Shown here piece by piece: positions 34,420-55,852 of a stretch of DNA of 64,000 nucleotides. Both the position numbers and the translations under genes were made by a program. Each line of letters starts with the position of its first letter. Within the stretch, counting starts at the first letter, position 1. Origin of the DNA: an uncultured Alphaproteobacteria bacterium (GTDB lineage Bacteria > Pseudomonadota > Alphaproteobacteria > Rhodobacterales > Rhodobacteraceae). The DNA lies in NCBI GenBank assembly GCA_963708425.1, contig OY970206.1:1841208-1905207 (forward strand). Direction: 5' to 3'. Below the pieces are notes generated by a model. That model was given only the letters and a program-made list of their open reading frames with translations. It was not told the DNA's origin and made no database searches.

Positions 34420-34478
34420 TTTCTGTGTCGCTGCCGATTCCCTCGGCGATGCAGCCTATCAAGTGGAAGCCTGCTCTA

Positions 34479-35090: not shown

Positions 35091-35094
35091 TCCG

Positions 35095-36276: not shown

Positions 36277-36288
36277 AGGCACTTTTCG

Positions 36289-39655: not shown

Positions 39656-41338
39656 TCAGCCCTTCCCATACAACTCGTCCGCTTCCGCCTTGGAATACCG
39701 CCCCAACCGCACATCCTCGGCAACGGCTGCAGGCTCGCGCCTTGCCGGATCGCCGTATCCACCGCCGCCCGGTGTTCGCACCCGCACCCGGTCGCCCGGC
39801 CCAAGCACAATGTCCTGCGCCTTCGACAGATGCTCCGGCACCATCACCACGCCGCCCCGCGTCACTTCAACCCTGTTCAAAGCGCCGTCGCCACCACCCA
39901 ACGCGCCTTGCGGCCCGGTGCGCCCGTGATCCATCACGAAACTGGCCCGCGCGTTGCCCCGCAGTAGCTCAATCTCGTAATCCAATCCAAAACCGCCCCG
40001 ATGCTGCCCCGCGCCGCCAGATCCTTCATGCAAACCATAGCGGCGATACAGCACCGGAAAGTTCTGTTCCATAATCTCAACCGGCGGGGCTTTCGAAATG
40101 CCAATAGTCGAACAGCCATTGCTTAACCCGTCATGGTCGGCATTGCCGCCATAGCCGCCACCCGAAATCTGATACATCACATAATCGCGCCCGCGCTCCG
40201 GGTCATGTCCACCAAGGCCAAAGTTGCCAGACGTGCCTGCGGGTGACGCTGTTACCCGATCCGGCAACGCCTGTACCAATGCCGCAAACACTGCTTCGGC
40301 AATGCGCTGGCTTACCTCGGCCGCACAGCCAGACACCGGGCGCGGATATTGCGCATCAAGAAACGTACCTTCAATCCCGGTCACTACCAACGGCTCGAAC
40401 GCGCCGGCAGAAATCGGCACATCCGGAAAGATATGACGCATCGCCAGATAAACTGACGACAGCGTTGTTGCGCGAACCGAATTCATCGGCCCCATACAGG
40501 GCAGCGACGACCCAGCAAAATCAAACGTCAACGCATCACCATTCGCCGTCACCGTCAGCGCAATCGTCAATGGTTCATTCACCACGCCGTCGCTATCGAC
40601 ATAGGCGCTGGCGGTGTAACTTCCCTCCGGGATCAGCCCGATGTTGGCCCGCATCTGCCGCGCCGCAAGCACCCGCATTTCGGCAATCGCCTCGGTCACT
40701 ACGACATCGCTATAGCGATCCAGCAATGCCGTCAGCCGTGCCGCCCCTACCAACAGCGCCGATGCCTGCGCCTTTACATCGCCAATCCGTTGTTCGGAAA
40801 CCCGTATGTTGGAGCAGATGATCTGGTAAATCTCAGTATCCATCACACCGCGCTTGAACAGCTTCACCGGCGGCAGACGCAGACCCTCTTGTTCGGCACT
40901 TGTCGCACTTGCTGAAAACCCGCCGGGCACTGACCCGCCAGTATCTGGCCAATGTCCGGTGTTGGACAACCAGCAATAGATCACCCCATCTCGATAAAAC
41001 GGCATCGCAAAGCGCACATCCATCAAATGGGTACCGCCAAGATAGGGGTCATTAACAATATAAATGTCGCCCGGCTCCGGTGCCGCCGTCACCCCCGCTG
41101 CAATACGCTCCACAATATGCCGGGTCGAAAACTGCATGGTGCCGACAAACACTGGCAGACCACGCGCGCCCTGCGCAATCAAAGCGCCATCCACAGCGGA
41201 ATAAATGCCATCCGACCGATCATCCGCTTCGGCTATCACCGGCGAAAACGCGGCACGGCTGAAGGTCAGGTCCATCTCATCGCAGACCTGCTGCAACCCC
41301 GCCTGAATAACCGCCAATGTTACCGGATCAAGCATCAT
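39656..41338 (-). CDS. hyuB: Hydantoinase B/oxoprolinase family protein
   Basis: Blocks present: DPVTLAVIQAGLQQVCDEM, NDPYLGGTHLMD, GGGYGG and PGGGGYGDP. The ATG at 41338 (or 41335) overlaps the end of hyuA. Confidence 0.9.
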   Translation of the reverse strand: MMLDPVTLAVIQAGLQQVCDEMDLTFSRAAFSPVIAEADDRSDGIYSAVDGALIAQGARGLPVFVGTMQFSTRHIVERIAAGVTAAPEPGDIYIVNDPYLGGTHLMDVRFAMPFYRDGVIYCWLSNTGHWPDTGGSVPGGFSASATSAEQEGLRLPPVKLFKRGVMDTEIYQIICSNIRVSEQRIGDVKAQASALLVGAARLTALLDRYSDVVVTEAIAEMRVLAARQMRANIGLIPEGSYTASAYVDSDGVVNEPLTIALTVTANGDALTFDFAGSSLPCMGPMNSVRATTLSSVYLAMRHIFPDVPISAGAFEPLVVTGIEGTFLDAQYPRPVSGCAAEVSQRIAEAVFAALVQALPDRVTASPAGTSGNFGLGGHDPERGRDYVMYQISGGGYGGNADHDGLSNGCSTIGISKAPPVEIMEQNFPVLYRRYGLHEGSGGAGQHRGGFGLDYEIELLRGNARASFVMDHGRTGPQGALGGGDGALNRVEVTRGGVVMVPEHLSKAQDIVLGPGDRVRVRTPGGGGYGDPARREPAAVAEDVRLGRYSKAEADELYGKG

Positions 41339-43374
41339 GTCCCCCAATCGTGATGATCAGATTGCCATCGGCGTCGCTGGTCACGAGGTCCCCCGGTTCC
41401 ACCACAATCGTCGTATCCATCTGCTCGATAATCGCCGGGCCAGTCAGCTTGGCATCCAGTGGCAGGTGATCGCGCCAGTAAACCGGCGTCTCCACCCAAT
41501 TGCCAAAATAGACCCTACGCTGGCCTTTTTGCGCATCTTTCACCGAATTTCGTCTCCCTGCGGGATCAATCAACCGTGATAAATCCACCTCCGGTCGCCG
41601 CCCGATTACCGAAACGTTCAAGTTCATCAAATTCGCCCGGATGTTCGGCAAATCCACATGAAACCGAGCATGATAGGCCGCCTCAAAAAGTAACTGAAGC
41701 GTTTCCCGATCGGGCGTTGCATCGGGCAGAGCTATGCGTAAAAGATGGGTCTGCCCCACAAATTGCATATCACACGTGTTACGCACCTCGATGCCGCGCA
41801 ATTCCAGCTTTTCAGCCGCGATCAAAGCCCGCCCTTCCGCCGCCTGATCCGCCAAAATCGCATGAACCCGCCCCATATCAACGCTATCCAGCGGCTGATT
41901 CAAAGACCGAACAAAATCATGCCTCAAATCCGCAACCACGCAGCCCAAAGCATTCGTAATGCCTGGCCTCGCCGGGACCAAAACTCGCGGGATAGCCAGC
42001 TCCCGCGCCAAAGCCGCCGCATGAAGCGGCCCCGCCCCGCCAAAAGCAAACAAAGCAAAGTCGCGAGGATCAGCCCCCATCGAGATGGAAACCATCCGGA
42101 TAGCCCCCCCCATATGCGCGTTCGCGACCCGTATCACCGCCTCGGCAGCCGCTTCCACCGACAGCCCCAACGGCGCTGCAATCTGATCCTGCATCGCCGC
42201 CCGCGCTGCCCCGATCGCCTGCCCGAACCGTTCCGCAGGCAGCCTTCCTAGCAGCAAGTTTGCAGTCGGAAATCGTCACGCGGGTACCACCCAACCCGTA
42301 ACAAACCGGCCCCGGATGCGACCCCGCACTTTCTGGACCCACCCGCAGCATCCCCCCCGCATCAACCCGCGCGATAGACCCACCCCCAGCCCCAACGGTG
42401 CGAACGTCCACCATCGGCACATGAATCGGCATTGCGTACTCAATCTCGATCTCGTTCGAAACAGGTGCCAAACCGCCCTTAATCAGTGCCACATCGGTTG
42501 AGGTGCCGCCCATATCATAGGTCACCAAATCAGCCATGCCCGCCCGAGCTCCGGTGTAAACCGCTGCCATAACCCCCGATGCTGGCCCGGACATCACGGT
42601 TTTCACCGCCTCGCGTGACACTTTCGCCGCCGACACCATGCCCCCATTGCCGTTCATCACCAGCAACTCGCGCGCATACCCCCGCGCTGCCAACCCTTCG
42701 GCCAGCCTCCCGATGTACCGTTCCAACATCGGCTGCACCGAGGCGTTCACCGCCGCTGTCACCCCCCGCTCATATTCCCGGCTTTCCGACAGCAAGGCAT
42801 GGCCCATCGTGATGTATGGTGTCGGCCAAAGACTGGCGGCAATCTCCGCCGCGCGGCGTTCATGGGCCGGGTTGGCATAGCTGTGCAGAAAGTGGATCAC
42901 CAAGCTTTCGCACCCAGCAGCGACAAGCTGGGCCACCGCATCGCGCACCGCACCCTCGTCCAAAGCCGTTACCACACGCCCTTGCGCATCCATCCGCTCC
43001 GGAACTTCCAGACGCAGATCGCGCGGGATGATCGGGGTAAAGCGCCCCGTCATGCCATACGGATTTGGTCGTGTGCGCCGCCCCAGCTCCAACACATCGC
43101 GAAATCCGACAGTCGTGATCATCCCTGTCCGACATAATTTCCGTTCCAACACGGCATTTGTCGTCGTCGTTGTACCGTGCACGATCAGATCAATATCGGC
43201 CAGCGGGGCGTCAGCAGTCTCTAACGCTGCCAAAACGCCTGCCGCCTGACCACCCGACGCTGGGTCTAGCGTTGTTGGCACCTTGGCTAGTCGCACGGCG
43301 CCAGTTAGGGGATCAAAGATCACGAGATCGGTAAATGTGCCGCCAACATCAACGCCTGCAACCAGCCCAGCCAT
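41328..43374 (-). pseudogene. hyuA: Hydantoinase A/oxoprolinase family gene interrupted by a single-nucleotide frameshift at 42264
   Basis: The N-terminal ORF (43374 down to about 42265) has GVDVGGTFTD and reaches ...GTRVTISD. The C-terminal ORF (42263 down to 41328) continues ANLLLGRLPAERF... in the +1 frame. Removing the base at 42264 gives a continuous 681-aa HyuA with the canonical junction TISDANLLLGRL. Confidence 0.75.
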
Positions 43375-43377
43375 CCG

Positions 43378-44073
43378 TCAGACCCCCACGTATTTGCGAA
43401 ACTGCGGGGCGTCCGCCGTCAAATCGCCTACCGCAACGGCTTCCATCACTTTGCCACCCACCATAAAGGCTACTTGATCGGCCAAAGACAGCACCGCATC
43501 CACCCTTTGTTCGACTAGAACGGTCGCCACCCCCGTGGATTTCAACGCCAGAACCGTTTCGCGAATCAGCGCAATCATGGATGGTTGCAAGCCCTCTGTC
43601 GGTTCATCCAATAGCAAAACCTGCGGCTCCAGACACAATGCGCGGGCCATGGCCAGCATCTGCTGCTCGCCGCCAGAGAGGGTGCGCGACTGCTGTGCCA
43701 ATCTTTCGCGCAACCGCGGAAACAGGTCTAACACCCGATCCTTGGTCGCCGCCCCTTTTCCGCGCGTCATCAGCCCGATTTCGATGTTTTCGGCCACAGT
43801 CAACTCACCAAACAAACGGCGGCCCTGCGGCACATAGCCAATTCCGTGACGCGGCACCTCATGCGCGGGTAGATCGCCAATATCTGTGCCGGCCAGCGTA
43901 ATCTTGCCGCGCGTGACACGCACTTGCCCCATCACAGCGCGCAAAGCGGTGGTTTTACCCGCTCCGTTGCGCCCCATCAGGCACGTCACCTGCCCCGCTC
44001 GGGCGAATACTGTCAGCCCATTCAACACCTGGACGACACCATAGCCTGCATCAACATCGTCAATCCGCAGCAT
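43378..44073 (-). CDS. Branched-chain-amino-acid-type ABC transporter ATP-binding protein (LivF-like)
   Basis: Walker A GRNGAGKTT, signature LSGGEQQML and Walker B LLLDEPTEGL. The start at Met 44073 overlaps the LivG-like stop. Confidence 0.85.
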   Translation of the reverse strand: MLRIDDVDAGYGVVQVLNGLTVFARAGQVTCLMGRNGAGKTTALRAVMGQVRVTRGKITLAGTDIGDLPAHEVPRHGIGYVPQGRRLFGELTVAENIEIGLMTRGKGAATKDRVLDLFPRLRERLAQQSRTLSGGEQQMLAMARALCLEPQVLLLDEPTEGLQPSMIALIRETVLALKSTGVATVLVEQRVDAVLSLADQVAFMVGGKVMEAVAVGDLTADAPQFRKYVGV

Positions 44074-44776
44074 AGTCCGCCCCCAGATAAGCGGCCTGCA
44101 CGGCGGCACTGCCGCGTATTTCGGCGGGCGCTCCCTGCGCCAGAACCTTGCCATAATTCATTACGGTAATACGGTCTGCCAGATCCATGACCACATCCAT
44201 GTTGTGTTCGATGAGCAGCACTGTGGTTTGCGGAATAAGGCTCTGAATAAGGCTTTTGAAGCTTTCAGTCTCGGCATTCGCCAGACCTTGGGTCGGTTCG
44301 TCCAGGATCAAAAGCCGAGGCTGCAGCGCCAACCCCATGGCGATTTCCAACAACCGTTGATGGCCATAAGCCAGCGTTCCGGCAGTTTGCGCGGCCAAGT
44401 CGGCTAGGCCCACCCGAGCAAGGGCCGCATCAGTTTCGGTACGCAAATCCTTCGGACCCCGCCGCTGCACCGCCAGAGCCACGTTATCAAACACCGAAAG
44501 CCGCCCGTAGATTGAGGTGATCTGAAACGTGTAGGCAATGCCGCGCGCAACACGGGCATGGGCGGCCAGATGCGTTATGTTGTTGCCATCAAAGACAATC
44601 GTGCCAGCCTGCACCGCAACCCGTCCACATAGCAGGCCCACCAACGTGGTTTTCCCTGCCCCGTTCGGCCCGATCAAGGCATGAATTTCGCCCGCCATCA
44701 CGTCGAAGTCCACATTGTCAACGGCCTGAAGCCCGCCATAGTGCCGGGTTAGGCCACGCGTTTGCAGCAACGTCAT
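44060..44776 (-). CDS. Branched-chain-amino-acid-type ABC transporter ATP-binding protein (LivG-like)
   Basis: Walker A GPNGAGKTT, LAYGHQRLLEIAM and Walker B LILDEPTQGL. It has an ATGA overlap with the upstream permease gene (44773-44776). Confidence 0.85.
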   Translation of the reverse strand: MTLLQTRGLTRHYGGLQAVDNVDFDVMAGEIHALIGPNGAGKTTLVGLLCGRVAVQAGTIVFDGNNITHLAAHARVARGIAYTFQITSIYGRLSVFDNVALAVQRRGPKDLRTETDAALARVGLADLAAQTAGTLAYGHQRLLEIAMGLALQPRLLILDEPTQGLANAETESFKSLIQSLIPQTTVLLIEHNMDVVMDLADRITVMNYGKVLAQGAPAEIRGSAAVQAAYLGADYAAD

Positions 44777-45720
44777 GGCAGCCATGGCAACCACCGTTCT
44801 CGCACCATGCCCAATATGCCGCGCGGGGCAAATAATACTAGAACAAGCAGTGCTACACCGACGACCAACAGGTTCGCTGTGGTGTAACTGCTTGAAAGAT
44901 CAATAAGATAAAACATCAGCAGGGCACCGATGAATGGCCCCAACACCACCCCTGCACCACCCAGCAGCACCCACAGCATCGGCAAAATGGAGTACTGGAT
45001 GGTAGCAAAGCTAGCCCCAGCATAGCCAAACATCAATGCAAACGCCGCCCCAGCCACGCCCGCGTAAAGACCAGAGATGACCATGACGATCAATTTTGTG
45101 CGGTAGGGATCGTAGCCTAACATCCGACTGCGATCCTCGTTTTCGCGCATGCCCACCATCACCCGGCCAAACGGTGCGCGCACCAGCGCCAGATTGCCGA
45201 TCAAAGCGACGCCAAACAGAAGCCACGCCACGAGATAACGCGGCATCTCGGCCGAAAGGTTGAGACCCACCAAGACACGGGATTGCGCCGTAATCACGAT
45301 GCCCTCGTCGCCGCCAGTAACGGCACCAAAGTAAAGCACGCACAGATACCCCGCCTGCGCGAACATCAGTGTGACAATCATGAAAGACACCCCGGCAGTA
45401 CGGAGCGCCAACGCACCAACCGCCGCGGCCATCAGCCCGCCGGCAAGCAGCCCGGCAATCATTGCGGGCAGGGCAGGCCATGCGAAAAGTTGCGCCGTGA
45501 GCCCCGCACCATAAAGACCGGCGGCAAACAGCAGGGCGTGACCGAGGCTAAGCAACCCCGTGTAACCAAACGCTATGTTGTAACCCATCGCGAACACCGC
45601 CAACACCATAATGCGCGCCAGATTGGTGTGGTGATAGGCCGGCAAGAGCCAGTTCAGCGCCAGCGCCAAGGCAACGACCCCAAGATGCAGTGCCCAAATT
45701 TTGCGGCCATGTCCGATCAT
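44773..45720 (-). CDS. Branched-chain-amino-acid-type ABC transporter permease (LivM-like)
   Basis: Polytopic, with blocks GYTGLLSLGHALLFAAGLY and MRENEDRSRMLGY. It has an ATGA overlap with the LivH-like gene. Confidence 0.85.
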   Translation of the reverse strand: MIGHGRKIWALHLGVVALALALNWLLPAYHHTNLARIMVLAVFAMGYNIAFGYTGLLSLGHALLFAAGLYGAGLTAQLFAWPALPAMIAGLLAGGLMAAAVGALALRTAGVSFMIVTLMFAQAGYLCVLYFGAVTGGDEGIVITAQSRVLVGLNLSAEMPRYLVAWLLFGVALIGNLALVRAPFGRVMVGMRENEDRSRMLGYDPYRTKLIVMVISGLYAGVAGAAFALMFGYAGASFATIQYSILPMLWVLLGGAGVVLGPFIGALLMFYLIDLSSSYTTANLLVVGVALLVLVLFAPRGILGMVRERWLPWLP

Positions 45721-46595
45721 GGCTTTGCCCCAAACAGGCCCTGCGGGCGGAAGACCAACACCATGGCCACAAGCAGGGTGGCAATAATCTTAGCCAACGT
45801 GGGCGAGAAAAACATCGAGATGACGCCATCCGACAACCCGATCATCAGCGCTGCCACAAAGGTGCCGCGCAGGCTGCCCAAGCCACCAATGATCACCACG
45901 ATGAACGCCAATAGTAACGGATCGCCGCCCATCAAATACTGCGCTTGGCTGATCGGCACGATTAGCACTGCAGCCACCGCCGCCAACCCAGCGCCAAGGG
46001 CAAAAACGCCAGTATAGACCCTATTTACGTTGATCCCGAACGCCTGCGCCGTTGTACGATCTATCTGCGTTGCCCGCATGATCAGCCCTGTTTTGGTGCG
46101 GGTCATCACCCACCAAACTGCACCCAAAATCAGCATCGTAGCCATCACCACAAACAGTTTGTAGCCAGAATAGCCGAACCATGGGAATTGCAGGCGCAGG
46201 GTAAACGGCGCCTCGACCGGGCGGGCATCGGGGCCGTAAATCGACAGCGCGGCCTGCTGAAAAATGTAAAGCAACCCGATGGTGGCAAGGATCGTCGCCT
46301 CGGGGTCATAGTTCAGGCGTTTCAGCACTAGCCGATCGGCAATCGCCGCTACCGCTGCAATCGCCAACGGACACAAAACCAGCGCCGCAATAAAGCCAAT
46401 CCATGGCGGGCCGGGTGCCGCTTGTGTTACAAACCACGCACCGACGGCACCCAGCATGAAAAACTCGCCATGCGCGACGTTCACCACGCGCATCACGCCA
46501 AACACCAGACTTAAGCCAACAGCCGTCAGCGCCAGCACCGCCGACGTGACCAGCCCCTCCATCACGGCCAGCAATAGGTGTGGTCCGAAATCCAA
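45717..46595 (-). CDS. Branched-chain-amino-acid-type ABC transporter permease (LivH-like)
   Basis: Polytopic, with blocks VNVAHGEFFMLGA, MRATQIDRTTAQAFGINV and GGLGSLRGTF. Confidence 0.85.
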   Translation of the reverse strand: MDFGPHLLLAVMEGLVTSAVLALTAVGLSLVFGVMRVVNVAHGEFFMLGAVGAWFVTQAAPGPPWIGFIAALVLCPLAIAAVAAIADRLVLKRLNYDPEATILATIGLLYIFQQAALSIYGPDARPVEAPFTLRLQFPWFGYSGYKLFVVMATMLILGAVWWVMTRTKTGLIMRATQIDRTTAQAFGINVNRVYTGVFALGAGLAAVAAVLIVPISQAQYLMGGDPLLLAFIVVIIGGLGSLRGTFVAALMIGLSDGVISMFFSPTLAKIIATLLVAMVLVFRPQGLFGAKP

Positions 46596-46651
46596 TATGC
46601 GCTATCCGGGAAATGTGGGGGGTCCGCCAACTGCAGACCCCCTATTTGTTA

Positions 46652-47947
46652 TCAGAACGACTGCGTGGTGTAATCCACCGCGTCGGGGTACGCGCCGTCT
46701 TCAAGCGAAGTGGTATGCACCCGCATCAACTTTCCGCCTTCGACCTTGGATATGTTCTGATGGCCGAACACTTGGTGTGTCTTGCCATTGAAGCGCTTGT
46801 CGCCCTGCGGGCGTTCCATGCCCGCGGGCAGGTCGTTCATCGCCTCAATCGCCTCGACAAACTTCTGGCGGTCTGCGGTCGTTTGATAACCAGACGCCTC
46901 CATCCCGGCCTTGATCATGAACAACGTCTCCCAGCAGGAAAACATGTGCGAATAGGTCGCGACGTCGGCAGGATCGGTTATGGATGCACCATTATCATCC
47001 ACACCAACCGCTGCACGGTAGAATGTTTCATGTTCTGACGCGTCGGCCTGTTTGAATCGATTGTGCGCTTCCCAGAAATGGGTGCCTTCAAGGAATTCCA
47101 AACCGGGGCTGGCAATATCTACGGCTTCGACGCTGTCGATGAAGCCAAAAATTTGTGGTCGCGTGCCACTACCGTAAAACTCGCCCAGTTCCTTTACAAA
47201 CGTCAACACAGCCGGGCCAACCATCACGTGATACAGCACTTCGGTATCGGTCGGAATTTGTGGGAAATAGCGGGTGAAGGTAGTCTCTGTCGGCGGAATT
47301 GCAATCTGCGCAAGCACTTCGCCGCCCTGCGCCTCGATCGCAGCTTTGAAAAAATCCCGGTGGTCATAGCCAAAGGCGAAGTCGGGGAACACCATGGTGA
47401 TCTTCTTGCCAAGGTTCGCCGCCACCCACGGCGCCATCGCCGAAATCTGCGACCGCACATCAGTGATGCCGGGTTGCAAAGTCCAACGGTTCAGCATCCC
47501 CGATGCGACATGGAACCCCTCCGAACAGACCAGATAGGGCACCTTAAGTTCCGCCGCGCGCGGGGCAGAGCCAATCACCACATGGCTGAACAATGGCCCG
47601 AAAACTGCATCGACGCCTTGCTGGTTCACCAGCTTTTCAATCACCTCGGACCCGCGCTGTGGATCGGTCGCGTCATCTTCAAACACAATCTCGACCGGGC
47701 GGCCATTGATACCGCCGCCATCGTTGATCACCTTCAACGCCGCTTGGGCAGTGCGTTCGTACCAGCGGCCGTACGATGCGCCAATCCCGGTACGGTGCAG
47801 CTGAAAGCCGAGTTTGATGGGCGCGGCTGTCTGCGCCTGAATGAACCGAGGCATCGCGAAAGTGCCTACCCCTGCTGCAGCTCCGGCTGCAAGCCCGCGC
47901 AAAACCGTACGGCGCGATGGTTTGGTGTCGATCAAAAGCTTTGTCAT
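46652..47947 (-). CDS. Periplasmic substrate-binding protein of the LivK/amide-urea type, Tat-type signal
   Basis: It has the twin-arginine leader SRRTVLRGLAAGAAAGVGTFAMP and a type-I PBP body (IKLGFQLHRTGIGASYG, GGINGRPVEIVFEDD). Confidence 0.85.
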   Translation of the reverse strand: MTKLLIDTKPSRRTVLRGLAAGAAAGVGTFAMPRFIQAQTAAPIKLGFQLHRTGIGASYGRWYERTAQAALKVINDGGGINGRPVEIVFEDDATDPQRGSEVIEKLVNQQGVDAVFGPLFSHVVIGSAPRAAELKVPYLVCSEGFHVASGMLNRWTLQPGITDVRSQISAMAPWVAANLGKKITMVFPDFAFGYDHRDFFKAAIEAQGGEVLAQIAIPPTETTFTRYFPQIPTDTEVLYHVMVGPAVLTFVKELGEFYGSGTRPQIFGFIDSVEAVDIASPGLEFLEGTHFWEAHNRFKQADASEHETFYRAAVGVDDNGASITDPADVATYSHMFSCWETLFMIKAGMEASGYQTTADRQKFVEAIEAMNDLPAGMERPQGDKRFNGKTHQVFGHQNISKVEGGKLMRVHTTSLEDGAYPDAVDYTTQSF

Positions 47948-48035
47948 TGGTCATTCTCCACTGTTGATTGTTCGCGTCTTAGCCGCGCGTTTTTGGTTAA
48001 AGTTTGTCGGCACACAAATGAAAAGTCTACTGATT

Positions 48036-49391
48036 TCAGGCTCCCCTGGCTGTCGACAAAAGCCAAAGACCAAGAACGGTATATGCCACCATAAGAACGG
48101 TCGTTGGAAGATGTGCCGATACCGGCATCGTGCCATTTCGCCCAGCCAGCTTCAGGGTCAGAATCACCGCCAATATATGCGCACCAAGAATGGCGGAAAA
48201 TTGGGCAGCATAAATCAGACTCATGCTGGCGCCATCCGTCAGAAATCCGAAAGAGACATAGGCGAAGGGCAGTCCCAACAGGCTGTCGCCCCGAAACAGC
48301 GGATCATCCAGCGCCGCCAGCGTATATTGCCCGGTGGTCAATAGCGTCACCAGATGGTGCGCCGCGTGGTAGCCTGCCGCGATGGCAAGAAAGCTTAGCA
48401 CCACCGGCCCTGCGGAAAATCCTGCACCGCCGATCCAGCTTGACACCCGCAGCGCCGCCAAGATCAGGGACGCCGTCAGCACCCAAACAGAGACTAATCC
48501 AGTGGAATTGACCCAAACCACTGCCGATCTACCGGTAAATTCAAGCGGGTTTTGGCCAATTAGCCCCATCCACCAAAATGTTTCGGAAAGTCCGTCAAAC
48601 GTGAGCACCGCCAACGCCAGCGTGACAAATGCGATGGCCGATGGTGTCAACGCCTCCATCCGCAACACTTGCGCGCCCGGAACCCCCACAAATAGCCGCG
48701 CGCGTTGCCCGTCCTGATCAAGCCAAACCGGCGCAATCTTGGCAATGTAGCCAAAGAACACTGTCAGAAACTCGCCCTGCGGCAACCAATCGTCGCCCTC
48801 GGCCACTGCCAGCACAAAGATCACCAACCAGTAAATCAACGCTGCCTGCGCCAAAACGGCGGGGTCATCGGGCGACAGTGATACGATCTGAAACCAGCCA
48901 AATCCCGCATATCCCAGAACTGCCGGCCAATACCCGAACCGGCGCAGGCCAATACCTCGCGTCCGGCCCAGCAAGATACGGGCGATGCGGACCGGTGCCG
49001 TCCACGGATTCAATGCACGCCACAAATTGCCAAACACCATGCTGGCCAGCGGCAGGGCAATCCAGACCCCAGTCCAGAACACCAAGGTCATCAAGTTGTG
49101 CATCGGGTCGCGGGAGCCATAAAACCCGATCACGACAAGCCCCAGAAAGCACAGGAAACTGATGTAGGATGTCACCGAAACCGGCACCCAAGCCCGGCGT
49201 TCGTAAATCAGATGCGCCTGCATCGTGGGCAGGCGCTGCGCCATCGCGCCCAACATGGCGGTCAGTGCAACCGTCACAGCGGCACCTAAGATGTAGTGCC
49301 CCGTCGGCAGTGTCAGGATGACCGAGGGTGGCAAGGCGCAGGCAAAACCGGCACTTGGCAGCAGCGCAAGGCCTGCCGCCAGCGCCCGCAT
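48036..49391 (-). CDS. Polytopic membrane protein of unknown family (about 451 aa)
   Basis: About 10-12 hydrophobic segments and no family motif that I recognise. Start ATG 49391 overlaps the upstream stop by 1 nt. The 97 extra N-terminal codons of the track ORF overlap the upstream gene and are Arg/Cys-rich, so I reject them. Confidence 0.65.
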   Translation of the reverse strand: MRALAAGLALLPSAGFACALPPSVILTLPTGHYILGAAVTVALTAMLGAMAQRLPTMQAHLIYERRAWVPVSVTSYISFLCFLGLVVIGFYGSRDPMHNLMTLVFWTGVWIALPLASMVFGNLWRALNPWTAPVRIARILLGRTRGIGLRRFGYWPAVLGYAGFGWFQIVSLSPDDPAVLAQAALIYWLVIFVLAVAEGDDWLPQGEFLTVFFGYIAKIAPVWLDQDGQRARLFVGVPGAQVLRMEALTPSAIAFVTLALAVLTFDGLSETFWWMGLIGQNPLEFTGRSAVVWVNSTGLVSVWVLTASLILAALRVSSWIGGAGFSAGPVVLSFLAIAAGYHAAHHLVTLLTTGQYTLAALDDPLFRGDSLLGLPFAYVSFGFLTDGASMSLIYAAQFSAILGAHILAVILTLKLAGRNGTMPVSAHLPTTVLMVAYTVLGLWLLSTARGA

Positions 49392-49966
49392 CAGCGTAGC
49401 CCGTCCTTGCCGGTTACATCCCACGCCTCTAGCCCGCCCATGCGCGAATGGATGCGCGGCCCTTTCGCCATGGCCAGCACGAATACAATCTCGCCTGCGC
49501 GGGGCCCGTCGGGCACGCTGACAGTTATCGCATCGAAATGACTGCGCACATAGGCCGCGTTGATATGGCCTAACGGTACATCCAGGCTGCCACCCATGCC
49601 CGCAACTTTCATCACCGACGGAACAATGGCCCGGCTTTCTCCCAGCCGTTCGCGCATCGCATAGCCGCCCGGCACATGCCAAAGTGCCGCATGTTCCGCC
49701 TCGCCGGCCTCGCCCACTATGGCCCCTTTGCCATAGCCATCGATGCCATCGATCCCGCCCAAAGCCGCTATCAAACGGTCGGTCAACATCAGGCCAAGCG
49801 GCTTCAGATCGTCCATCGCCGCTTGCAAATCTGGCGCATGATGCCCGGCAAATGGGTTCGTCACTACGGCCATGATGGCCCCGCGTTGGCGTAACCCAAC
49901 TGGCCCGCCTTCGTGCAGGATATCTTCAATCAGCACGGTAATCCGGCGCACGGAGAATTCAGGCAA
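49391..49966 (-). CDS. Amino-acid-synthesis family protein (DUF1185/PF06684-like); function unknown
   Basis: 191 aa. The N-terminus SVRRITVLIEDILHEGGP...AIMAVVTNPFAG and the GKGAIVGEAGEAEHAALWH block match my recollection of this family. Confidence 0.7.
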   Translation of the reverse strand: MPEFSVRRITVLIEDILHEGGPVGLRQRGAIMAVVTNPFAGHHAPDLQAAMDDLKPLGLMLTDRLIAALGGIDGIDGYGKGAIVGEAGEAEHAALWHVPGGYAMRERLGESRAIVPSVMKVAGMGGSLDVPLGHINAAYVRSHFDAITVSVPDGPRAGEIVFVLAMAKGPRIHSRMGGLEAWDVTGKDGLR

Positions 49967-50786
49967 AAGCAGGCTCCTTCATAGCGAGTGGTCCAACAAT
50001 ACGACTTTCACCCTGCAGGAAAAGTGCTGCAGATTGAATCAATCCGGCAGAACGATAGGCGCTTGCCGCCGCCGCCCCCCTGGCTAATGCCGCGTTCACA
50101 TCAGCCCGGGTCAGCCGCCCGACCGCAACCGTCACCAACCGCGCGCCAAGGTCACTGTCGGCTTGCAGGTCACGCGCCGGCCTACGGATAATCGCTGAAT
50201 GCCCCAGCAAATCCACTGCGTTCGCAATCATCGTCGCCGCCGCGTCTGCGATAGCGGCAGTTCTAGCCAAAACAGACACTGAATCCGCAATCCCCAAAGA
50301 CCAGCTACGCCCGCGCCACCCCGACGTCGCAATCCCTCGTACGGCATCTTGGCTGCGGATGGTGATCTGGCTATCCGCCCCGGCAATCGCACAAACCAAG
50401 CGTTCGCCCGGCGTTAAATGCAGCGCCATGTCGCCCCCATTGTTCACGTAGGCTCGGCTGATCCCCGACCCTACCAATGCGGCCAGCACCGCCTCGGCCA
50501 CCGCCCCCGCTACTGCTGCCATCGGAGTGATGAACTGCGGGCGAAACGGCGCAACCGCCCTGCCCATCGCCTGCGGAATTGGGCCGATTAGAGCCTTATT
50601 CTCACTGCGAAGCGCGGGCAGCTCTGAAACCAGCTCCTCCAGCAAGCCGTCAAACCTGCGGCAAGCGCGCCGATAGCCCGCTTCGACCAAATCGCTTCGC
50701 CCCCAAGCCTCACAGATCAAATCAATCGGCCCGTGCTGCAAATGCAACCGCCCGTCCGGCAACCGGTTTGCCACGGCAACGCTCAT
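49959..50786 (-). CDS. UPF0280 family protein
   Basis: Blocks TPMAAVAGAVAEAV, VNNGGDMAL, GIATSGWRG.S.SLGIADSV match my recollection of UPF0280. It has an ATGA overlap with the upstream gene. Confidence 0.6.
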   Translation of the reverse strand: MSVAVANRLPDGRLHLQHGPIDLICEAWGRSDLVEAGYRRACRRFDGLLEELVSELPALRSENKALIGPIPQAMGRAVAPFRPQFITPMAAVAGAVAEAVLAALVGSGISRAYVNNGGDMALHLTPGERLVCAIAGADSQITIRSQDAVRGIATSGWRGRSWSLGIADSVSVLARTAAIADAAATMIANAVDLLGHSAIIRRPARDLQADSDLGARLVTVAVGRLTRADVNAALARGAAAASAYRSAGLIQSAALFLQGESRIVGPLAMKEPAFA

Positions 50787-52225
50787 TCGTCACCCTCCGG
50801 CCAATTTTCTAGCCGCGCCGCAGTTTGATATTCGCCACCCGCCCGCATCACCTGATCCAGCGTTCTAATCGCATCATCATGCCCACCCAGCGCCAAGTAG
50901 TCGTCGCGCGGCATGGTAAACTCCAGCGGTGCCACCAATGCAGGTGTCGGCACATAACCGAACGCCCCCTTCGGCAGCGCCAGCACATCGACCATAAAGG
51001 TAATCCCGCCGCCCGGCCATACATAGCATGCTGCCCCGCCACTGGTCAGCCGCGTTGCCCGCGATTGCACAGACCGCGTCAACCGAACCGGGTTTTTCGT
51101 CACCCCGGCGCGCAGGCTGCCCCCCGCACCACCCATGAACAGCACTGTACAAAGCGACGGCTCGCAGTTTTCATCAATCATCTCGACCGATGGCTGCAGC
51201 GCCTTCGGAAGTGCATGTTTCTGCGGTATCAGAGCCTCATCCAGCACAAAGTAAGCATATTCCTCACCAGTGGTTGATACCATCAACATCGTCAAACCCG
51301 GCCGCGCACCCTTCTTCGGGTTCCATTCGCCGAGGATCTCCAGCGGGTCGGTCAACTTGGTACCGCCCCAGCCCAACCCCGGTTCTGACACCTTGAAATA
51401 CCGCCCCGGTGTCGACCGATGACCCTTGATCTTGATCCCCGACGGTTGCCATCCCAGCACCTTACCCGCTTGATGTTCCGAGACGACGCCGGTGATGTGG
51501 TCATCCACCACCACAACCTCATCCACCAGCCCATACCACTGCGCCGCGAACATGCCGATCGTCGCCGATCCACAGCCCACCCGCATCCGCCGTTCCGCCG
51601 TGCCATCCACAATCGGTGCCGCCCCCGCCTGCACCACAACCGCCGATCCACCATCAATCGTCAGCGCCACCGCTTCGGCATTACACAGCGCAAGCATTGC
51701 GGCACAGGTCACCCGCCCCTCGGCTTTCGCACCGCCAGTCAGATGATGCACCCCGCCGATAGACAGCATCTGGCTGCCATACTCCGCGGTCGTCACATGG
51801 CCAATCGCCTCGCCCTCTGCTCGAACAACCGCCCCTTCCGGCCCAAGATAGCGGTCGGTGTCAATTTTCACCTTGACCCCGCAATAGGAAAAGATCGCCT
51901 CCGTCACCACCGTCACCATATCAGCGCCTGCCACTTTTGATGACACGATGAAAGGCGCTGGCTTGTAATCCGGGTACGTAGTGCCAGACCCGATCCCGGT
52001 TACAAACGTATCGTCAGGCACCATGTCGCCGTCCCAATTGCGAAGGGCGAACGGCACAATGCGCGATCCGTCGACTAGGGCATTTGACAGCATCACCACC
52101 GGATCGGTGCGCACAATCCGCCCAGCATCATTGGCATAACGATCGCACGCCCCAGTCTGCCCCGGCGCGATATAGCACATCACCGGGCAGGCATCGCAAC
52201 GGATCTTTTCGGCGGGTTCGGTCAT
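50783..52225 (-). CDS. 6-hydroxynicotinate-reductase-like protein (putative Fe-S enzyme)
   Basis: 480 aa with an N-terminal four-Cys motif CDACPVMCYIAPGQTGAC. It resembles proteobacterial proteins annotated as 6-hydroxynicotinate reductase (recollection, not searched). It is flanked by ATGA overlaps. Confidence 0.55.
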   Translation of the reverse strand: MTEPAEKIRCDACPVMCYIAPGQTGACDRYANDAGRIVRTDPVVMLSNALVDGSRIVPFALRNWDGDMVPDDTFVTGIGSGTTYPDYKPAPFIVSSKVAGADMVTVVTEAIFSYCGVKVKIDTDRYLGPEGAVVRAEGEAIGHVTTAEYGSQMLSIGGVHHLTGGAKAEGRVTCAAMLALCNAEAVALTIDGGSAVVVQAGAAPIVDGTAERRMRVGCGSATIGMFAAQWYGLVDEVVVVDDHITGVVSEHQAGKVLGWQPSGIKIKGHRSTPGRYFKVSEPGLGWGGTKLTDPLEILGEWNPKKGARPGLTMLMVSTTGEEYAYFVLDEALIPQKHALPKALQPSVEMIDENCEPSLCTVLFMGGAGGSLRAGVTKNPVRLTRSVQSRATRLTSGGAACYVWPGGGITFMVDVLALPKGAFGYVPTPALVAPLEFTMPRDDYLALGGHDDAIRTLDQVMRAGGEYQTAARLENWPEGDE

Positions 52226-54924
52226 AGCCGTGCTGCCTTGATTGCGTCCAGCACCCTATGCGGCAGCGCTGGCAGTTTGGTAATCACCGCCCCGGTAGCA
52301 TGGCGAATTGCGTTTAGAATCGCGGGCGCAGTCGGGATCAGTACGTGTTCGCCCAAACCCTTCGCCCCCAATGGTCCCTCAGGGTCGGGCACTTCGATCA
52401 GAATGCTGTCAATAGGCGGCACGTCCCCCGTGGTGGGTATCAGGTAATCATGAAGGTTTTCGGTGCGCCCTGGCAAGTATTCCTCCATCAGCGCCATCCC
52501 GATGCCTTGCGCGATACCACCTTCAATCTGCCCTTCTGCCAGTTGCGGATTGATCGCTCGGCCAAGGTCGTGTGCTGCAGTGATCTTGATTAGTTTCACG
52601 GTGCCGAGGCGGGTATCAACCGCCAGTTCGACCATCTGTGCCCCATAACCATAAACCGCATAGGGTGCGCCTTGACCACTTGCATCCAACGCACTGGTCG
52701 GTGGATCATAGGTTTCCTCCGCCGAAATGGCATAGCCAAACGCGTCCGTCGGCAAGGGCAAAAGATTAATTTTCCGCCGAACAGAGCCTTCTGACACCAC
52801 CAGATGCCCATCCTCAAACCCAATCATTGCAGCATCGCTCGCGTTCGCCAACCGCAGCACTTTGGCCCGCAGACTACGCCCCGCCGCCAACGCCGCCCGC
52901 CCGGTCACGAAGGTTTGCCTGCTGGCAGATGTCTTGCCTGCATCTGGCGTAAGCGCGGTATCTGGCCCAATCAGGCTGATGCAATCCAGCGGCAAACCCA
53001 GACCATCCGCCGCAATCTGCGCGATCACAGTGTTCGACCCCTGGCCAATATCCGTCGCCCCTTGGTGCAGCATCACCTTGCCCTGCGCGGTAATCCCGAT
53101 GCGAATCGTCGATGGGTTCGGCAGGGCCGTATTCCCGCAGCCATACCAGCACGACGCCACACCAACCCCCCTCCGCATCACCGGATTGCCCAGATTGGCA
53201 GCTTTCGCGTCGGCCAGTGCGCTGCCCCACGGCACGCGCAGGGCTTCCAGACAGTCCCGAATCCCCACCGCCTGTAACTGTTGCCCAGTGGCGCTGGCAT
53301 CGCCGTCCCGCAGTGCGTTGATCAAGCGAAACTCCAGCCGATCTATGCCCGCAGCCTCGGCCAGCCGATCATACATCGTTTCCTGCCAGACCGCCGCTTG
53401 TGGCACCCCAAAGCCCCGAAACGCGCCCGAAACCGGGCCATTAGTATGAATGGCGCGGGCTGTAGCGGTGATATTTGGTGTCAAATACGGCCCGGAAACA
53501 TGCACCGGCACGCGGTTGGCCACAGTCGGGCCCCAACTGGAATACGCGCCGGTATCAAACCGCCCATCAAACTCCACCCCGGTAATCCGGCCCTTGGCAT
53601 CGCAGCCAATCCGTCCCTGCATTTCCGCCGGATGCCGCTTGGTTGTGGACGCCATGCTTTCGCTGCGCGAATAAACCATCCGCGCAGGTCGCCCAGTCTT
53701 CAACACCACCAACCCAAGCAGCGGCTGCAAGCTGACGTCCAACTTTGATCCGAACCCGCCCCCCACCGCGGATGGAATGATGCGCACGCAGTTTTGCGGC
53801 AGGCCCAGAATCGCTGCCGTCTCATCGCGGTCCATCACCGGTGCTTGGGTGCAGGCGCGGATCACCAGCGTATCGCCGTCCATCCACGCGGCCCCCGCCT
53901 CCGGCTCGATGTAGGCGTGCTCCACGAAAGAGGTAGCTACACTGCCCGACACTACATGGGCAGACCCAGCAAGTGCCGCTGCCACATCGCCCTTACGAAC
54001 ACGGCCCTCGATCAGCCTATTAAGGGGTCGATTTGCGTGGATCAGAGCCGCATTTGGTGCTTCGGCGGCGCTTGCGCTCATCAACGCGGGCAACGGTTCC
54101 CACAGAACGGGAAACGCTGAAATGTCGGTATCCGCCCCCGGTTCAAACGCAACCAAGGCTACCGCCTCGCCCCGAAACCGCGCGGGGCTTGGCGCAAGTG
54201 CTGGCTGGTCGGCGAATGGCGGTATTACCCCAAACGCATTGCGCCCGCGAACATCTGCTGCTGTCAGCACGCATGCCACACCGGGTCGCGCGGCAAAATC
54301 CGCCAGATCGCCAAACTGAAATGCGGCATGGTTATGCGGCGACCTGACCGCCTTCACCACCAGCGCACCTTCGGGCCCATAGTCGGCACCAAAACTGTCA
54401 CCGGCCACTTTTGCTGCCCCATCAAGCCGCGCCACGCTTTTGCCAACGGCATTGCCAGCGGTGGGTAAGTCGGACACCGCATTACCGCCTACATCGCAAA
54501 CCGCCGCAATAATCTTGGCATACCCGGTGCAGCGGCACAAAACCCCACCAAGGGCATCGCGCGCCTGACTTGGCGTCGGGTTGGCAACATTAGACACTAA
54601 CTCCGCCGCCATCATCAACATGCCCGGCGTGCAAATCCCGCATTGCGCGGCCCCATTACGCAGAAACGATGCGCGCAGGCGGGCCAAAATATCAGTCTTC
54701 GCCTCAACGGTTTCAACCCGGCACCCCTCGGCTCGGGCTGCCGGAACAAGGCAGGCGCAAACTGCCCGCCCGTCCATCAGCACTGTACAGGCCCCGCAAT
54801 CGCCAGCGTCACAGCCCACTTTCGTGCCTTTCAACCCGGCTTTTTCGCGCAAAACCTCTGACAAGCGCTCGGTTGGTGCTGCATCCAGTGCAACGTCTGC
54901 CCCATTCAGCGTAAAGCGGATCAT
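52222..54924 (-). CDS. Xanthine-dehydrogenase-family molybdopterin hydroxylase with a fused N-terminal [2Fe-2S] domain
   Basis: The N-terminus has GCDAGDCGACTV and CGICTPG...CRCTGY (two 2Fe-2S sites). The C-terminal roughly 750 aa carries Mo-cofactor large-subunit blocks (GGGFGSK, GQGSNT, AVYGYGAQ and the E-containing GLGE). Confidence 0.9.
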   Translation of the reverse strand: MIRFTLNGADVALDAAPTERLSEVLREKAGLKGTKVGCDAGDCGACTVLMDGRAVCACLVPAARAEGCRVETVEAKTDILARLRASFLRNGAAQCGICTPGMLMMAAELVSNVANPTPSQARDALGGVLCRCTGYAKIIAAVCDVGGNAVSDLPTAGNAVGKSVARLDGAAKVAGDSFGADYGPEGALVVKAVRSPHNHAAFQFGDLADFAARPGVACVLTAADVRGRNAFGVIPPFADQPALAPSPARFRGEAVALVAFEPGADTDISAFPVLWEPLPALMSASAAEAPNAALIHANRPLNRLIEGRVRKGDVAAALAGSAHVVSGSVATSFVEHAYIEPEAGAAWMDGDTLVIRACTQAPVMDRDETAAILGLPQNCVRIIPSAVGGGFGSKLDVSLQPLLGLVVLKTGRPARMVYSRSESMASTTKRHPAEMQGRIGCDAKGRITGVEFDGRFDTGAYSSWGPTVANRVPVHVSGPYLTPNITATARAIHTNGPVSGAFRGFGVPQAAVWQETMYDRLAEAAGIDRLEFRLINALRDGDASATGQQLQAVGIRDCLEALRVPWGSALADAKAANLGNPVMRRGVGVASCWYGCGNTALPNPSTIRIGITAQGKVMLHQGATDIGQGSNTVIAQIAADGLGLPLDCISLIGPDTALTPDAGKTSASRQTFVTGRAALAAGRSLRAKVLRLANASDAAMIGFEDGHLVVSEGSVRRKINLLPLPTDAFGYAISAEETYDPPTSALDASGQGAPYAVYGYGAQMVELAVDTRLGTVKLIKITAAHDLGRAINPQLAEGQIEGGIAQGIGMALMEEYLPGRTENLHDYLIPTTGDVPPIDSILIEVPDPEGPLGAKGLGEHVLIPTAPAILNAIRHATGAVITKLPALPHRVLDAIKAARL

Positions 54925-55748
54925 GCCACCACCTGAGCTATCGCCCGCCGCACCAGTTCGGCAGCGGCTTCGGCCCGATAACCAGCAGTCGCGCGAACAT
55001 CGTCGATCGGCGCAAGTGCCGCCGCCACATCGGCGTTGCGCACCAGCCCAGCGGCTAAAGCAGTCGGCGCATTCACCAGCGCCGCCTCAACTTCCTGCAG
55101 CCGTCGTGCAACGCCGCTGCACGACCCCACGGCAATATGCGCCTGCACTACCCGGCCCTGTTTCACCACCAACCGCACCGCCACCATCGCGATTGAAATG
55201 ACCAAATGCGCCCGCGCGCCCAGCTTGATGAATGCCGAGCTTCCCAGCAGCCCCGCGGGCGGTATCCACACCGCCGTCAAAATCTCATCCGCCGCCAACG
55301 CGGTTTGCCGTGGCCCGGTGATAAACGCCCCCAGCGGCAATCGCCTCGTCCCACCTGGCGATGCCAACTCCACGTCCGCCCCCAGCACCAAGAGCGGCGG
55401 GACACCATCGGCAGCAGGCGATGCATTGCACAAATTCCCTGCAATAGTGCCTGTATTCTGGATCTGACGGCCACCAATCTGCACCGCCGCCTGCTGCAAG
55501 GCAATCAGTGCAGGCGGCAGACGCGCCTCCGCAATTGCCGCCCAAGTTGTGCAAGCCCCAATCCGCAAGGCACCATCCTGCATCGCAATACCCTGCAACG
55601 CCGCGATCCGCGTCACATCCAGCATTGGCCCCACCAACGACGCCCCCGCACCCGGATAATGGTCCGTCCCGCCCGCCAGAACCCGCGATCCGGCACTGCG
55701 CAGCGTCAATGCCTCGGTTAGCGTCGTCGGGCGGGAATAGTCGCGCAT
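54921..55748 (-). CDS. FAD-binding subunit of a xanthine-dehydrogenase-family enzyme (CoxM/medium-subunit type)
   Basis: Blocks YSRPTTLTEALTL, LAGGTD, IQNTGTIAGNLCNASPAAD. Start Met 55748 is preceded by GAGG. The longest ORF reaches 55871 and overlaps the divergent MarR gene. Confidence 0.8.
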   Translation of the reverse strand: MRDYSRPTTLTEALTLRSAGSRVLAGGTDHYPGAGASLVGPMLDVTRIAALQGIAMQDGALRIGACTTWAAIAEARLPPALIALQQAAVQIGGRQIQNTGTIAGNLCNASPAADGVPPLLVLGADVELASPGGTRRLPLGAFITGPRQTALAADEILTAVWIPPAGLLGSSAFIKLGARAHLVISIAMVAVRLVVKQGRVVQAHIAVGSCSGVARRLQEVEAALVNAPTALAAGLVRNADVAAALAPIDDVRATAGYRAEAAAELVRRAIAQVVA

Positions 55749-55852
55749 CAGCCTCGCCGTATTGTTTGTGTGCATATTAATCTGATCGCAGAACGCCGCA
55801 TCTGTCAACTTTCTTGCGTGGTCTGTTGTGGCCCTGTATCCCGAACCGCATA

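Follow-up and report, generated by a model that had tools for sequence, protein, structure and literature searches.

The closest described systems are the nicotinate genes of Eubacterium barkeri (ndhFSLM, hnr and ena), which encode hydroxylation, ring reduction and hydrolytic ring opening, and a gene cluster found in Proteobacteria. The latter is common to Azorhizobium caulinodans ORS571, Bradyrhizobium japonicum USDA110, Rhodopseudomonas palustris HaA2 and strain SG-6C, and encodes the first three nicotinate steps, an ATP-binding cassette (ABC) transporter, two conserved unknown proteins and a homologue of 6-hydroxynicotinate reductase (Hnr) (AZC_2790-2804, blr3818-3830 and RPB_1658-1671; Shettigar et al., 2012, PMC3511419, citing Alhapel et al., 2006). 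One Hnr homologue from the Bradyrhizobiaceae is 42% identical to E. barkeri Hnr (PMC3511419). We analyzed a 64-kb stretch of DNA from an uncultured bacterium of the Rhodobacteraceae (contig OY970206.1, positions 1,841,208 to 1,905,207; hereafter the window). A minus-strand block of genes in the window is a member of this proteobacterial Hnr-type nicotinate cluster family, which was noted in 2006 and 2012. An earlier note on the sequence had called nicotinate only the closest analogy. Since the cluster family is not new, nicotinate is the most likely substrate and not a mere analogy.

Like the proteobacterial clusters, the block encodes a molybdenum (Mo)-dependent hydroxylase beside an Hnr homologue, UPF0280 and DUF1185 proteins and a Liv-type ABC importer, together with a MarR protein. 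Unlike them, it does not encode the third-step enamidase, and a HyuA/HyuB pair is found there instead. A tblastn search with an enamidase orthologue (E <= 1e-3) found no enamidase in the window. The Bradyrhizobium loci encode a NicAB-like Mo-enzyme with a cytochrome c domain, whereas the window encodes a FAD subunit and a fused FeS/Mo subunit. Their ABC module is also of a different type, and that of the window has an extra protein with about 10 transmembrane (TM) helices. With E. barkeri, the window shares the sequence of hydroxylation, ring reduction and hydrolytic ring opening, the Hnr family, and a Mo domain that is closest to NdhL and NdhM among solved structures. It differs in that E. 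barkeri Hnr has a 2x[4Fe-4S] domain, the E. barkeri Mo subunit is split and not fused to the FeS domain, and enamidase is present. The HyuA/HyuB lactamases (N-methylhydantoinase, 5-oxoprolinase, Pseudomonas jessenii CapAB and Pseudomonas putida OplBA) resemble the window pair in having adjacent, overlapping A and B genes with full domains. In contrast to them, the window pair sits in a nicotinate cluster, scores far under the caprolactamase cut-offs and has a frameshifted hyuA. A HyuAB variant of the nicotinate cluster is not described in the literature searched, and the apparently undescribed part is the systematic swap of enamidase for an ATP-dependent HyuAB lactamase.

We consider it probable, with moderate confidence, that the block is a catabolic operon under MarR control for the 'reductive' nicotinate pathway of Azorhizobium and E. 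barkeri, built of three modules, in which HyuAB opens the ring of 1,4,5,6-tetrahydro-6-oxonicotinate (THON). In module 1 (55748-49391), a two-subunit Mo-hydroxylase would convert nicotinate to 6-hydroxynicotinate, and a short-form Hnr would reduce the latter to THON, a cyclic enamide and δ-lactam. UPF0280, in flavin handling or Hnr maturation, and DUF1185 would serve as partners of Hnr. Module 2 (49391-43378) would take up the substrate through a Liv/Urt-type ABC importer with a Tat-type substrate-binding protein (SBP) and the 10-TM accessory protein. In module 3 (43374-39656), HyuA and HyuB would act as an ATP-dependent lactamase on the THON ring, in place of the metal-dependent enamidase, which would amount to a non-orthologous displacement. 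We infer both the substrate of the operon and the reaction catalyzed by HyuAB. The scheme of uptake, hydroxylation, reduction and ATP-driven ring opening put forward in the earlier note is thus largely retained, with the amendments that hyuA is broken in this genome and that the membrane protein is assigned to uptake.

Mutual exclusion of HyuAB and enamidase in Hnr loci

Species representatives in GTDB were scanned with an alignment of Hnr, which yielded 80 loci that were taken with 10-kb flanks and onto which the window proteins were mapped by tblastn. Loci from plasmids and metagenomes brought the total to 91. HyuAB is present in 32 of these loci and enamidase in 23, and no locus has both. 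The enamidase orthologue counted here is the 407-residue amidohydrolase of the Bradyrhizobium-type loci, which matches PDB entry 2VUN with an E-value of 2.4e-108. The clusters are otherwise homologous, and this mutual exclusion supports the earlier proposal that HyuAB replaces enamidase.

The gene order of the window, FAD-Mo-Hnr-UPF0280-DUF1185-membrane-SBP-permeases-ATPases-HyuA(-HyuB), recurs exactly in about 20 Paracoccaceae, including Tabrizicola, Pseudotabrizicola, Neotabrizicola, Gemmobacter, Frigidibacter, Fertoeibacter and Pseudorhodobacter, and on a PGAP-annotated plasmid of Fuscovulum ytuae. By the GTDB scan, the window itself falls in the Paracoccaceae, close to Tabrizicola. Three variants (L014, L019 and L022) have neither the membrane protein nor the ABC genes, and HyuA directly follows DUF1185, which shows that the block is modular. 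In seven more loci (from Roseibium, Actibacterium, a metagenome-assembled genome of the Stappiaceae, Marinobacter and others), HyuBA lies beside the Mo-enzyme genes in the other orientation. Two plasmids have closely matched layouts. On that of Pseudosulfitobacter sp. DSM 107133, FAD-Mo-HyuA-HyuB is divergent from FNR-Hnr-UPF0280-DUF1185-DUF1185 (FNR, ferredoxin-NADP reductase) and hyuA overlaps the Mo-subunit gene. On that of Sulfitobacter pontiacus, an enamidase gene (product 74% identical to that of Bradyrhizobium) is divergent from FNR-FAD-Mo-Hnr-UPF0280-DUF1185-DUF1185. HyuA is physically linked to the cluster in several ways, overlapping or abutting the preceding gene in the window and the DUF1185 or Mo-subunit gene in other variants. 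Among 17 plasmid records with a HyuB of at least 70% identity, at least 10 have it within ~8 kb of Hnr. A neighbor-joining tree of Hnr splits the HyuAB-type loci into at least three groups, which are interspersed with loci of the enamidase type. That the two hydrolases never occur together, are interleaved on the Hnr tree and are found in near-identical plasmid layouts supports the idea of replacement.

Some loci show further arrangements. The FNR gene of the two plasmids (L088 and L089) directly precedes the Hnr or Mo-enzyme genes, and its product is a candidate electron donor for short-form Hnr. A gene for the alpha subunit of a Rieske oxygenase follows the DUF1185 pair on both plasmids. Neither a Rieske nor an FNR gene is present in the window. 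Nine roseobacter-type loci (L031-L036, L039, L043 and L046) have the order membrane-SBP-ABC-FAD-Mo-Hnr-UPF0280-DUF1185, with neither HyuAB nor enamidase within the available sequence.

The affinities of HyuAB itself agree with a lactamase. The nearest structures to HyuB are the caprolactamase-type 6yra_B (E = 2.9e-74) and N-methylhydantoinase (3e-66), while acetophenone carboxylase matches only at 1e-31, and acetophenone and acetone carboxylases are far more distant. The caprolactamase equivalogs NF050156 and NF050157 are the best NCBIfam models for the pair, although the scores (303 and 172 bits for the halves of A, 308 bits for B) are under the cut-off of 1000 bits. Judged by sequence, HyuAB is nearer to the lactamases than to the carboxylases. 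The family includes enzymes for the breakdown of δ- and ε-lactams (PMC6838509, PMC8453981): P. putida OplBA is needed for growth on valerolactam (PMC6838509), and CapAB is an ATP-dependent caprolactamase (PMC8453981). THON is a δ-lactam, and its opening by HyuAB, which we propose, is therefore chemically plausible.

If HyuAB opens THON, the pathway would provide a natural, pathway-embedded δ-lactam substrate for ATP-dependent lactamases, which are of interest for nylon-monomer biocatalysis, and a physiological substrate new to the hydantoinase/oxoprolinase family. It would also explain nicotinate catabolism without enamidase in many marine and freshwater Rhodobacterales, Stappiaceae and some Marinobacter. 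The assignment would correct misleading labels, namely 'acetophenone carboxylase' or 'N-methylhydantoinase' for HyuAB, 'amino acid synthesis family' for DUF1185 and 'branched-chain amino acid transporter' for the ABC module, and it offers testable roles for the long-standing unknown families UPF0280 and DUF1185.

Hnr and its conserved partners

The 480-residue protein has more than 8000 homologues, and those named by their sources are called 6-hydroxynicotinate reductase (NCBI, JGI) or 'hypothetical protein'. It is 65-73% identical to the Hnr proteins encoded in loci of Bradyrhizobium, Afipia and Bosea. Long forms of ~510 residues, with 37-47% identity over ~450 residues, were also found among 1.8 billion cluster representatives. 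The family naming, the ~70% identity to Bradyrhizobiaceae homologues and the similarity to the long forms support the homology to Hnr that the earlier note had proposed. The extra N-terminal 55 residues of the long forms are a 4Fe-4S dicluster domain. The window protein starts ~55 residues later, and neither the alignment nor Pfam (no Fer4 match) places a 2x[4Fe-4S] ferredoxin domain at its N-terminus. Five cysteines (C10, C13, C17, C27 and C218) are invariant in the family and are candidate cofactor ligands or attachment sites.

The Hnr family is without a Pfam or NCBIfam model, a sequence search of the PDB gave no match, and Foldseek found no significant fold neighbor in the PDB for the AlphaFold2 model (mean predicted local distance difference test score, pLDDT, of 73.6). 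The only signal, a faint one, was for a barrel like that of GCV_T_C, at E = 0.012 in Pfam and with a probability of 0.4-0.5 in Foldseek matches with glycine-cleavage T-proteins.

The long-form loci show the E. barkeri arrangement in one neighborhood. In L083-L085, a three-subunit Mo-hydroxylase and an enamidase orthologue are encoded directly beside long-form Hnr, corresponding to the E. barkeri trio; this is the sole long-form neighborhood where both enamidase and Mo-hydroxylase were found. In another locus (L086, on the ENA metagenome contig k141_2470910), a long-form Hnr with Fer4 is flanked by TctABC transporters, the large subunit of a Mo-hydroxylase and a renal-dipeptidase-type Peptidase_M19, and enamidase is not present. 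The Peptidase_M19 is possibly a third alternative ring-opening hydrolase.

The UPF0280 gene comes directly after that of Hnr in 63 of 75 loci. In a Foldseek search with its AlphaFold2 model (pLDDT 91), the top match is DVU1097 (2o34, E = 2e-9), and ranks 3-41 are occupied only by ApbE/Ftp/FmnB flavin transferases (39 chains, E-values of 1.5e-4 to 2e-2, TM-scores of 0.35-0.54); no other match was significant. Sequence and profile searches of the PDB returned only DVU1097 and no ApbE structure. An hhalign comparison with Escherichia coli Ftp covers 103 columns (E = 3.7e-4, probability 36.6%), and the motifs NNGGD, IATSG and ADAAAT align with SVGGA, ISTSG and ADAWDT, respectively. UPF0280 has no signal peptide or lipobox and is thus cytoplasmic, unlike ApbE/Ftp. 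With an ApbE-like fold but neither the His-containing loop of ApbE nor a signal peptide, UPF0280 is best placed in the ApbE superfamily and not as a canonical ApbE. E. barkeri Hnr is reported to carry a covalently bound flavin. Together with the ApbE fold, this makes flavin delivery or attachment to Hnr an attractive function, and based on its modelled structure UPF0280 probably handles flavin or matures Hnr. An ApbE-type flavinylation motif in Hnr was considered and ruled out, because the threonine in 'CGSAT' (residues 216-222) is not conserved across the family.

DUF1185 is found in 68 of 74 Hnr loci, frequently as two tandem paralogues, and travels with short-form Hnr. Its fold resembles that of the Bacillus chorismate mutase, which raises the possibility that it handles an enamine or imine product. 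The 'amino acid synthesis' label of the family rests only on adjacent Liv-type ABC genes (PMC2954203), and these neighbors are the same clusters as those described here. The earlier note had suggested that UPF0280, DUF1185 and the membrane protein are pathway or maturation components. This fits the first two, which are conserved partners of Hnr. In contrast, the membrane protein follows the transporter. We infer the roles of all three from these associations.

A fuller version of the proposal would describe a widespread alpha- and gammaproteobacterial form of reductive nicotinate catabolism in which ATP-consuming HyuAB takes the place of the reversible, metal-dependent enamidase, UPF0280 without the His loop installs or supplies the flavin of short-form Hnr, and DUF1185 (chorismate-mutase/YjgF-like) processes the enamine or imine product. 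As a whole, we regard this version as tentative and on balance doubtful.

Alternative readings

Several results weigh against the proposed pathway or parts of it. The window Hnr is tied to E. barkeri Hnr through intermediates and not by direct alignment. The exclusion pattern covers loci and not whole genomes, and 36 of the 91 loci have neither hydrolase within the available sequence, many of them being short contigs or flank-limited, which leaves gaps in the phyletic pattern. UPF0280 falls below the Pfam gathering threshold for ApbE (PF02424; 12.1 bits, E = 0.13, versus 25.6), and HVIDPQTGRP of Ftp, which represents the HxxDPxTG loop, lies opposite a gap in UPF0280. The long-form (Fer4) Hnr loci examined have neither UPF0280 nor DUF1185, whereas the window has both; the missing UPF0280 argues against a general requirement for it in Hnr flavinylation. 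P. putida OplBA could not be reconstituted in vitro (PMC6838509). A close HyuAB also occurs away from Hnr in Sinorhizobium medicae, as discussed below, so this clade is not strictly tied to Hnr. Finally, with hyuA frameshifted, the proposed last step may be inactive here, and the pathway may not operate in this particular genome.

The frameshift is the basis of the first alternative, in which the operon of this strain is a decaying or non-functional remnant with a blocked ring opening, and the tight layout reflects recent ancestry. Of the thirteen genes in the earlier note, twelve are intact; the twelfth in order, hyuA, spans 2047 nucleotides, which is not a multiple of three, and consists of overlapping open reading frames (ORFs) in different frames, 42070-43374 (434 residues) and 41328-42257 (309 residues). 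Hydant_A_N and Pfam profile positions 1-171 of Hydantoinase_A are in one ORF, and profile positions 171-290 of Hydantoinase_A together with Hydant_A_C are in the other. The domain set of the A subunit is complete only when both are joined, while Hydantoinase_B is complete in the adjacent B gene. One additional base near 42264, in GAC-T-GCA-AAC, breaks the frame, and its removal restores TISDANLLLGRLPA. The frame stays open through TISDANL[LI]LGRL in each of the 28 related hyuA genes, and the non-homopolymer context GAC-T-GCA is without slippery or stop-codon features, both of which favor a real mutation. On the other hand, all other genes are intact, and the two halves contain no further stops and are 73-80% identical to relatives, suggesting either that hyuA was inactivated very recently or that the extra base is an error of sequencing or assembly. 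We regard a remnant as a serious possibility for this strain, if slightly the less probable one, and it is compatible with a functional reading of the cluster family. Programmed +1 frameshifting was rejected because all 28 relatives are in frame, and GAC-U-GCA has no slippery sequence, stop or rare codon or upstream Shine-Dalgarno-like element. No record turned up for the exact products that were looked up (the 434-residue ORF, the membrane protein and HyuB with either start). A Logan contig that matches the window at 99.955% identity spans only Hnr and parts of its two neighboring genes.

A second alternative keeps the same logic with another N-heterocyclic carboxylate as substrate, such as picolinate, isonicotinate, a methylated pyridine carboxylate or a pyrimidine-like compound. 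Hnr would then reduce a different hydroxylated ring, and the resulting lactam would not be a substrate of enamidase, hence HyuAB. The Mo-hydroxylase bears on this question. Its xanthine dehydrogenase-family domain set (FAD subunit, 2x[2Fe-2S] and MoCoBD_1/2) is complete, and the 900-residue subunit contains Fer2, Fer2_2, Ald_Xan_dh_C, MoCoBD_1 and MoCoBD_2. In favor of nicotinate, the best PDB relatives of the Mo domain are the two Mo subunits of E. barkeri nicotinate dehydrogenase, NdhL (257.5 bits over residues 159-563) and NdhM (221.9 bits over residues 584-898); the Mo subunit of the window scores 300 bits with 4-hydroxybenzoyl-CoA reductase and 276 bits with xanthine dehydrogenase. No catalytic subunit reaches an NCBIfam equivalog threshold, and the Mo-enzyme is built differently from E. 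barkeri NdhFSLM and from the NicAB-like enzyme in Bradyrhizobium loci. The SBP, the 10-TM protein and the ABC proteins likewise differ from the Bradyrhizobium type: identity is only ~35-40% in the permeases and ATPases, and the SBP belongs to another cluster. These differences would suit another substrate. However, the same FAD and fused FeS/Mo enzyme (55-59% identity) occurs alongside enamidase in L038, L070, L075, L078 and the S. pontiacus plasmid, suggesting that the upstream chemistry is probably equal, Hnr is 65-73% identical across HyuAB-type and enamidase-type clusters, and the two hydrolase types are interleaved on the Hnr tree. We therefore consider a different substrate unlikely.

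The last alternative is that HyuAB does not substitute for enamidase and acts downstream or in parallel on a different lactam, with THON opened by an enzyme encoded elsewhere or otherwise. The lactam could be saturated 6-oxopiperidine-3-carboxylate, formed by an OYE/FadH-type reductase, or an unrelated imported lactam or hydantoin; the substrate range of the HyuAB family is broad. A gene for an OYE/FadH-type flavoenzyme is located 24 nucleotides past marR and is kept upstream of the cluster, at 71-80% identity, in 12 close Paracoccaceae loci, where it forms a conserved pair with marR. It was not found in the other HyuAB-type or enamidase-type loci or on the Fuscovulum plasmid. The flavoenzyme is possibly co-regulated with the operon and might reduce a pathway intermediate. 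On plasmid pSMED01 of S. medicae WSM419 (L090, 90430-112100), a close HyuAB (69-73% identity; 58% for the C-terminal half of HyuA) is convergent with DUF1185 (60%). The next genes encode a MarR protein, two inosine-uridine nucleoside hydrolases and a Bmp/PnrA-type nucleoside ABC transporter, and no Hnr or Mo-hydroxylase is nearby. This pair may serve another N-heterocycle or nucleoside pathway. Against a different lactam in the Hnr loci stand the strict exclusion with enamidase across the 55 informative loci, the matched Sulfitobacter and Pseudosulfitobacter layouts, the translational coupling of HyuAB to the Mo-hydroxylase genes on the Pseudosulfitobacter plasmid, and the lack of the OYE gene in most HyuAB-type loci outside one Paracoccaceae clade, including the Fuscovulum plasmid, which together make this explanation improbable.

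Gene arrangement, importer and flanking genes

The features of the locus are listed in Table 1. Between 55748 and 39656, the genes of the minus strand make up a single densely packed block, and an ORF map and a scripted check reproduced every start, stop and junction of the earlier note. Five junctions are ATGA overlaps (54921-54924, 52222-52225, 50783-50786, 45717-45720 and 44773-44776). The UPF0280 and DUF1185 genes overlap by 8 nucleotides (TTGCCTGA, 49959-49966), and further overlaps measure 1 nucleotide at 49391, 14 nucleotides at 44060-44073 and 11 nucleotides at 41328-41338. A 3-nucleotide gap (43375-43377) separates the last ATPase gene from hyuA. The only real intergenic spaces are the 88 nucleotides before the SBP gene (47948-48035) and the 56 nucleotides after it (46596-46651). 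Homologues support the starts of the FAD subunit at 55748 (also the annotated start of the Fuscovulum homologue, and not the longer ORF start at 55871), of DUF1185 at a TTG at 49966 and of the membrane protein at 49391.

Dense packing of this kind is usual for bacterial operons, and the block is predicted to be co-transcribed as one unit. In a pattern scan, promoter-like and terminator-like patterns within the block were not more frequent than in shuffled sequence. The space after the SBP gene contains a hairpin with the arms GGGGGUCUGC...GCGGACCCCC (RNA fold of -21.4 kcal/mol, z = -2.5), which is likely an intra-operon mRNA stabilizer or attenuator that raises the stoichiometry of the SBP.

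Table 1. Features of the nicotinate-type locus in the window
Feature	Coordinates	Strand	Basis
OYE/FadH-type flavoenzyme, 701 residues	56297-58402	+	Oxidored_FMN and Pyr_redox_2 (Pfam, NCBIfam)
MarR-family regulator, divergent from the operon	55814-56272	+	Pfam MarR_2/MarR, E 2.6e-11
FAD-binding subunit, xanthine-dehydrogenase-family Mo-hydroxylase	54921-55748	-	Pfam FAD_binding_5 (4.4e-40), CO_deh_flav_C
Fused 2x[2Fe-2S] and molybdopterin subunit, 900 residues, putative nicotinate 6-hydroxylase	52222-54924	-	Pfam
Short-form 6-hydroxynicotinate reductase homologue, 480 residues	50783-52225	-	Family naming and homology to long forms
UPF0280 protein, ApbE-superfamily fold	49959-50786	-	NCBIfam PRK04334.1-2, 350 bits (cut-off 290)
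DUF1185 / 'amino acid synthesis' family	49391-49966	-	Pfam AA_synth 3.7e-61; PDB 3byq E 3e-47, 2qtp
Uncharacterized membrane protein, 451 residues, ~10 TM helices	48036-49391	-	Hydropathy analysis
Periplasmic SBP (Peripla_BP_6)	46652-47947	-	Pfam 1.8e-50; twin-arginine-like signal (weak TAT_signal match)
Intergenic hairpin	46596-46651	-	10-bp, GC-rich, directly after the SBP stop codon, without T-tract
HAAT-family ABC permease, LivH/UrtB-like	45717-46595	-	Pfam BPD_transp_2 4e-35; UrtB 193 bits, under cut-off
HAAT-family ABC permease, LivM/UrtC-like	44773-45720	-	Pfam BPD_transp_2 3e-36
ABC ATPase, LivG/UrtD-like	44060-44776	-	Pfam ABC_tran, BCA_ABC_TP_C
ABC ATPase, LivF/UrtE-like	43378-44073	-	Pfam ABC_tran
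hyuA (hydantoinase/oxoprolinase A subunit), 1-nucleotide insertion ~42264	41328-43374	-	Two ORFs, Pfam
hyuB (hydantoinase B/oxoprolinase), intact	39656-41338	-	Pfam Hydantoinase_B 4e-152

The membrane protein has no Pfam or NCBIfam match (Pfam even at an E-value of 10). It has 1174 homologues, and the listed ones are called 'hypothetical protein' or are unnamed, except for one UniRef label; none of the names is informative. The motifs NPWT, PDDP, FDGxxETFWW and YHxAH are conserved in its loops. Its gene is always beside the SBP gene of this type of ABC module and is missing where the module is missing. This co-variation suggests that the protein assists transport and has no part in catalysis or maturation. 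The best NCBIfam matches of the SBP are urea and Liv SBPs, all far under the cut-offs, and the best matches of the permeases and ATPases, also sub-threshold, are to the urea Urt system.

The divergent MarR gene, which lies in the upstream intergenic region and was overlooked by the earlier note, adjoins the cluster in many related loci and on the Fuscovulum, Sulfitobacter and Pseudosulfitobacter plasmids. Its product is a probable repressor of the cluster. No downstream genes for 2-formylglutarate were found in the window. On the other side, plus-strand genes at 33239-39609 encode an aldo-keto reductase, followed by TetR, an RND adaptor and an RND pump, and are convergent with the end of the operon; a 46-nucleotide spacer separates the stop of the pump gene (39609) from that of hyuB (39656). 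The wider window contains unrelated housekeeping and sugar-utilization genes, with an FGGY-kinase and ROK-family sugar-utilization group, TamAB, UbiG, prolyl aminopeptidase, cytochrome c', YchF and TrpA in the flanks.

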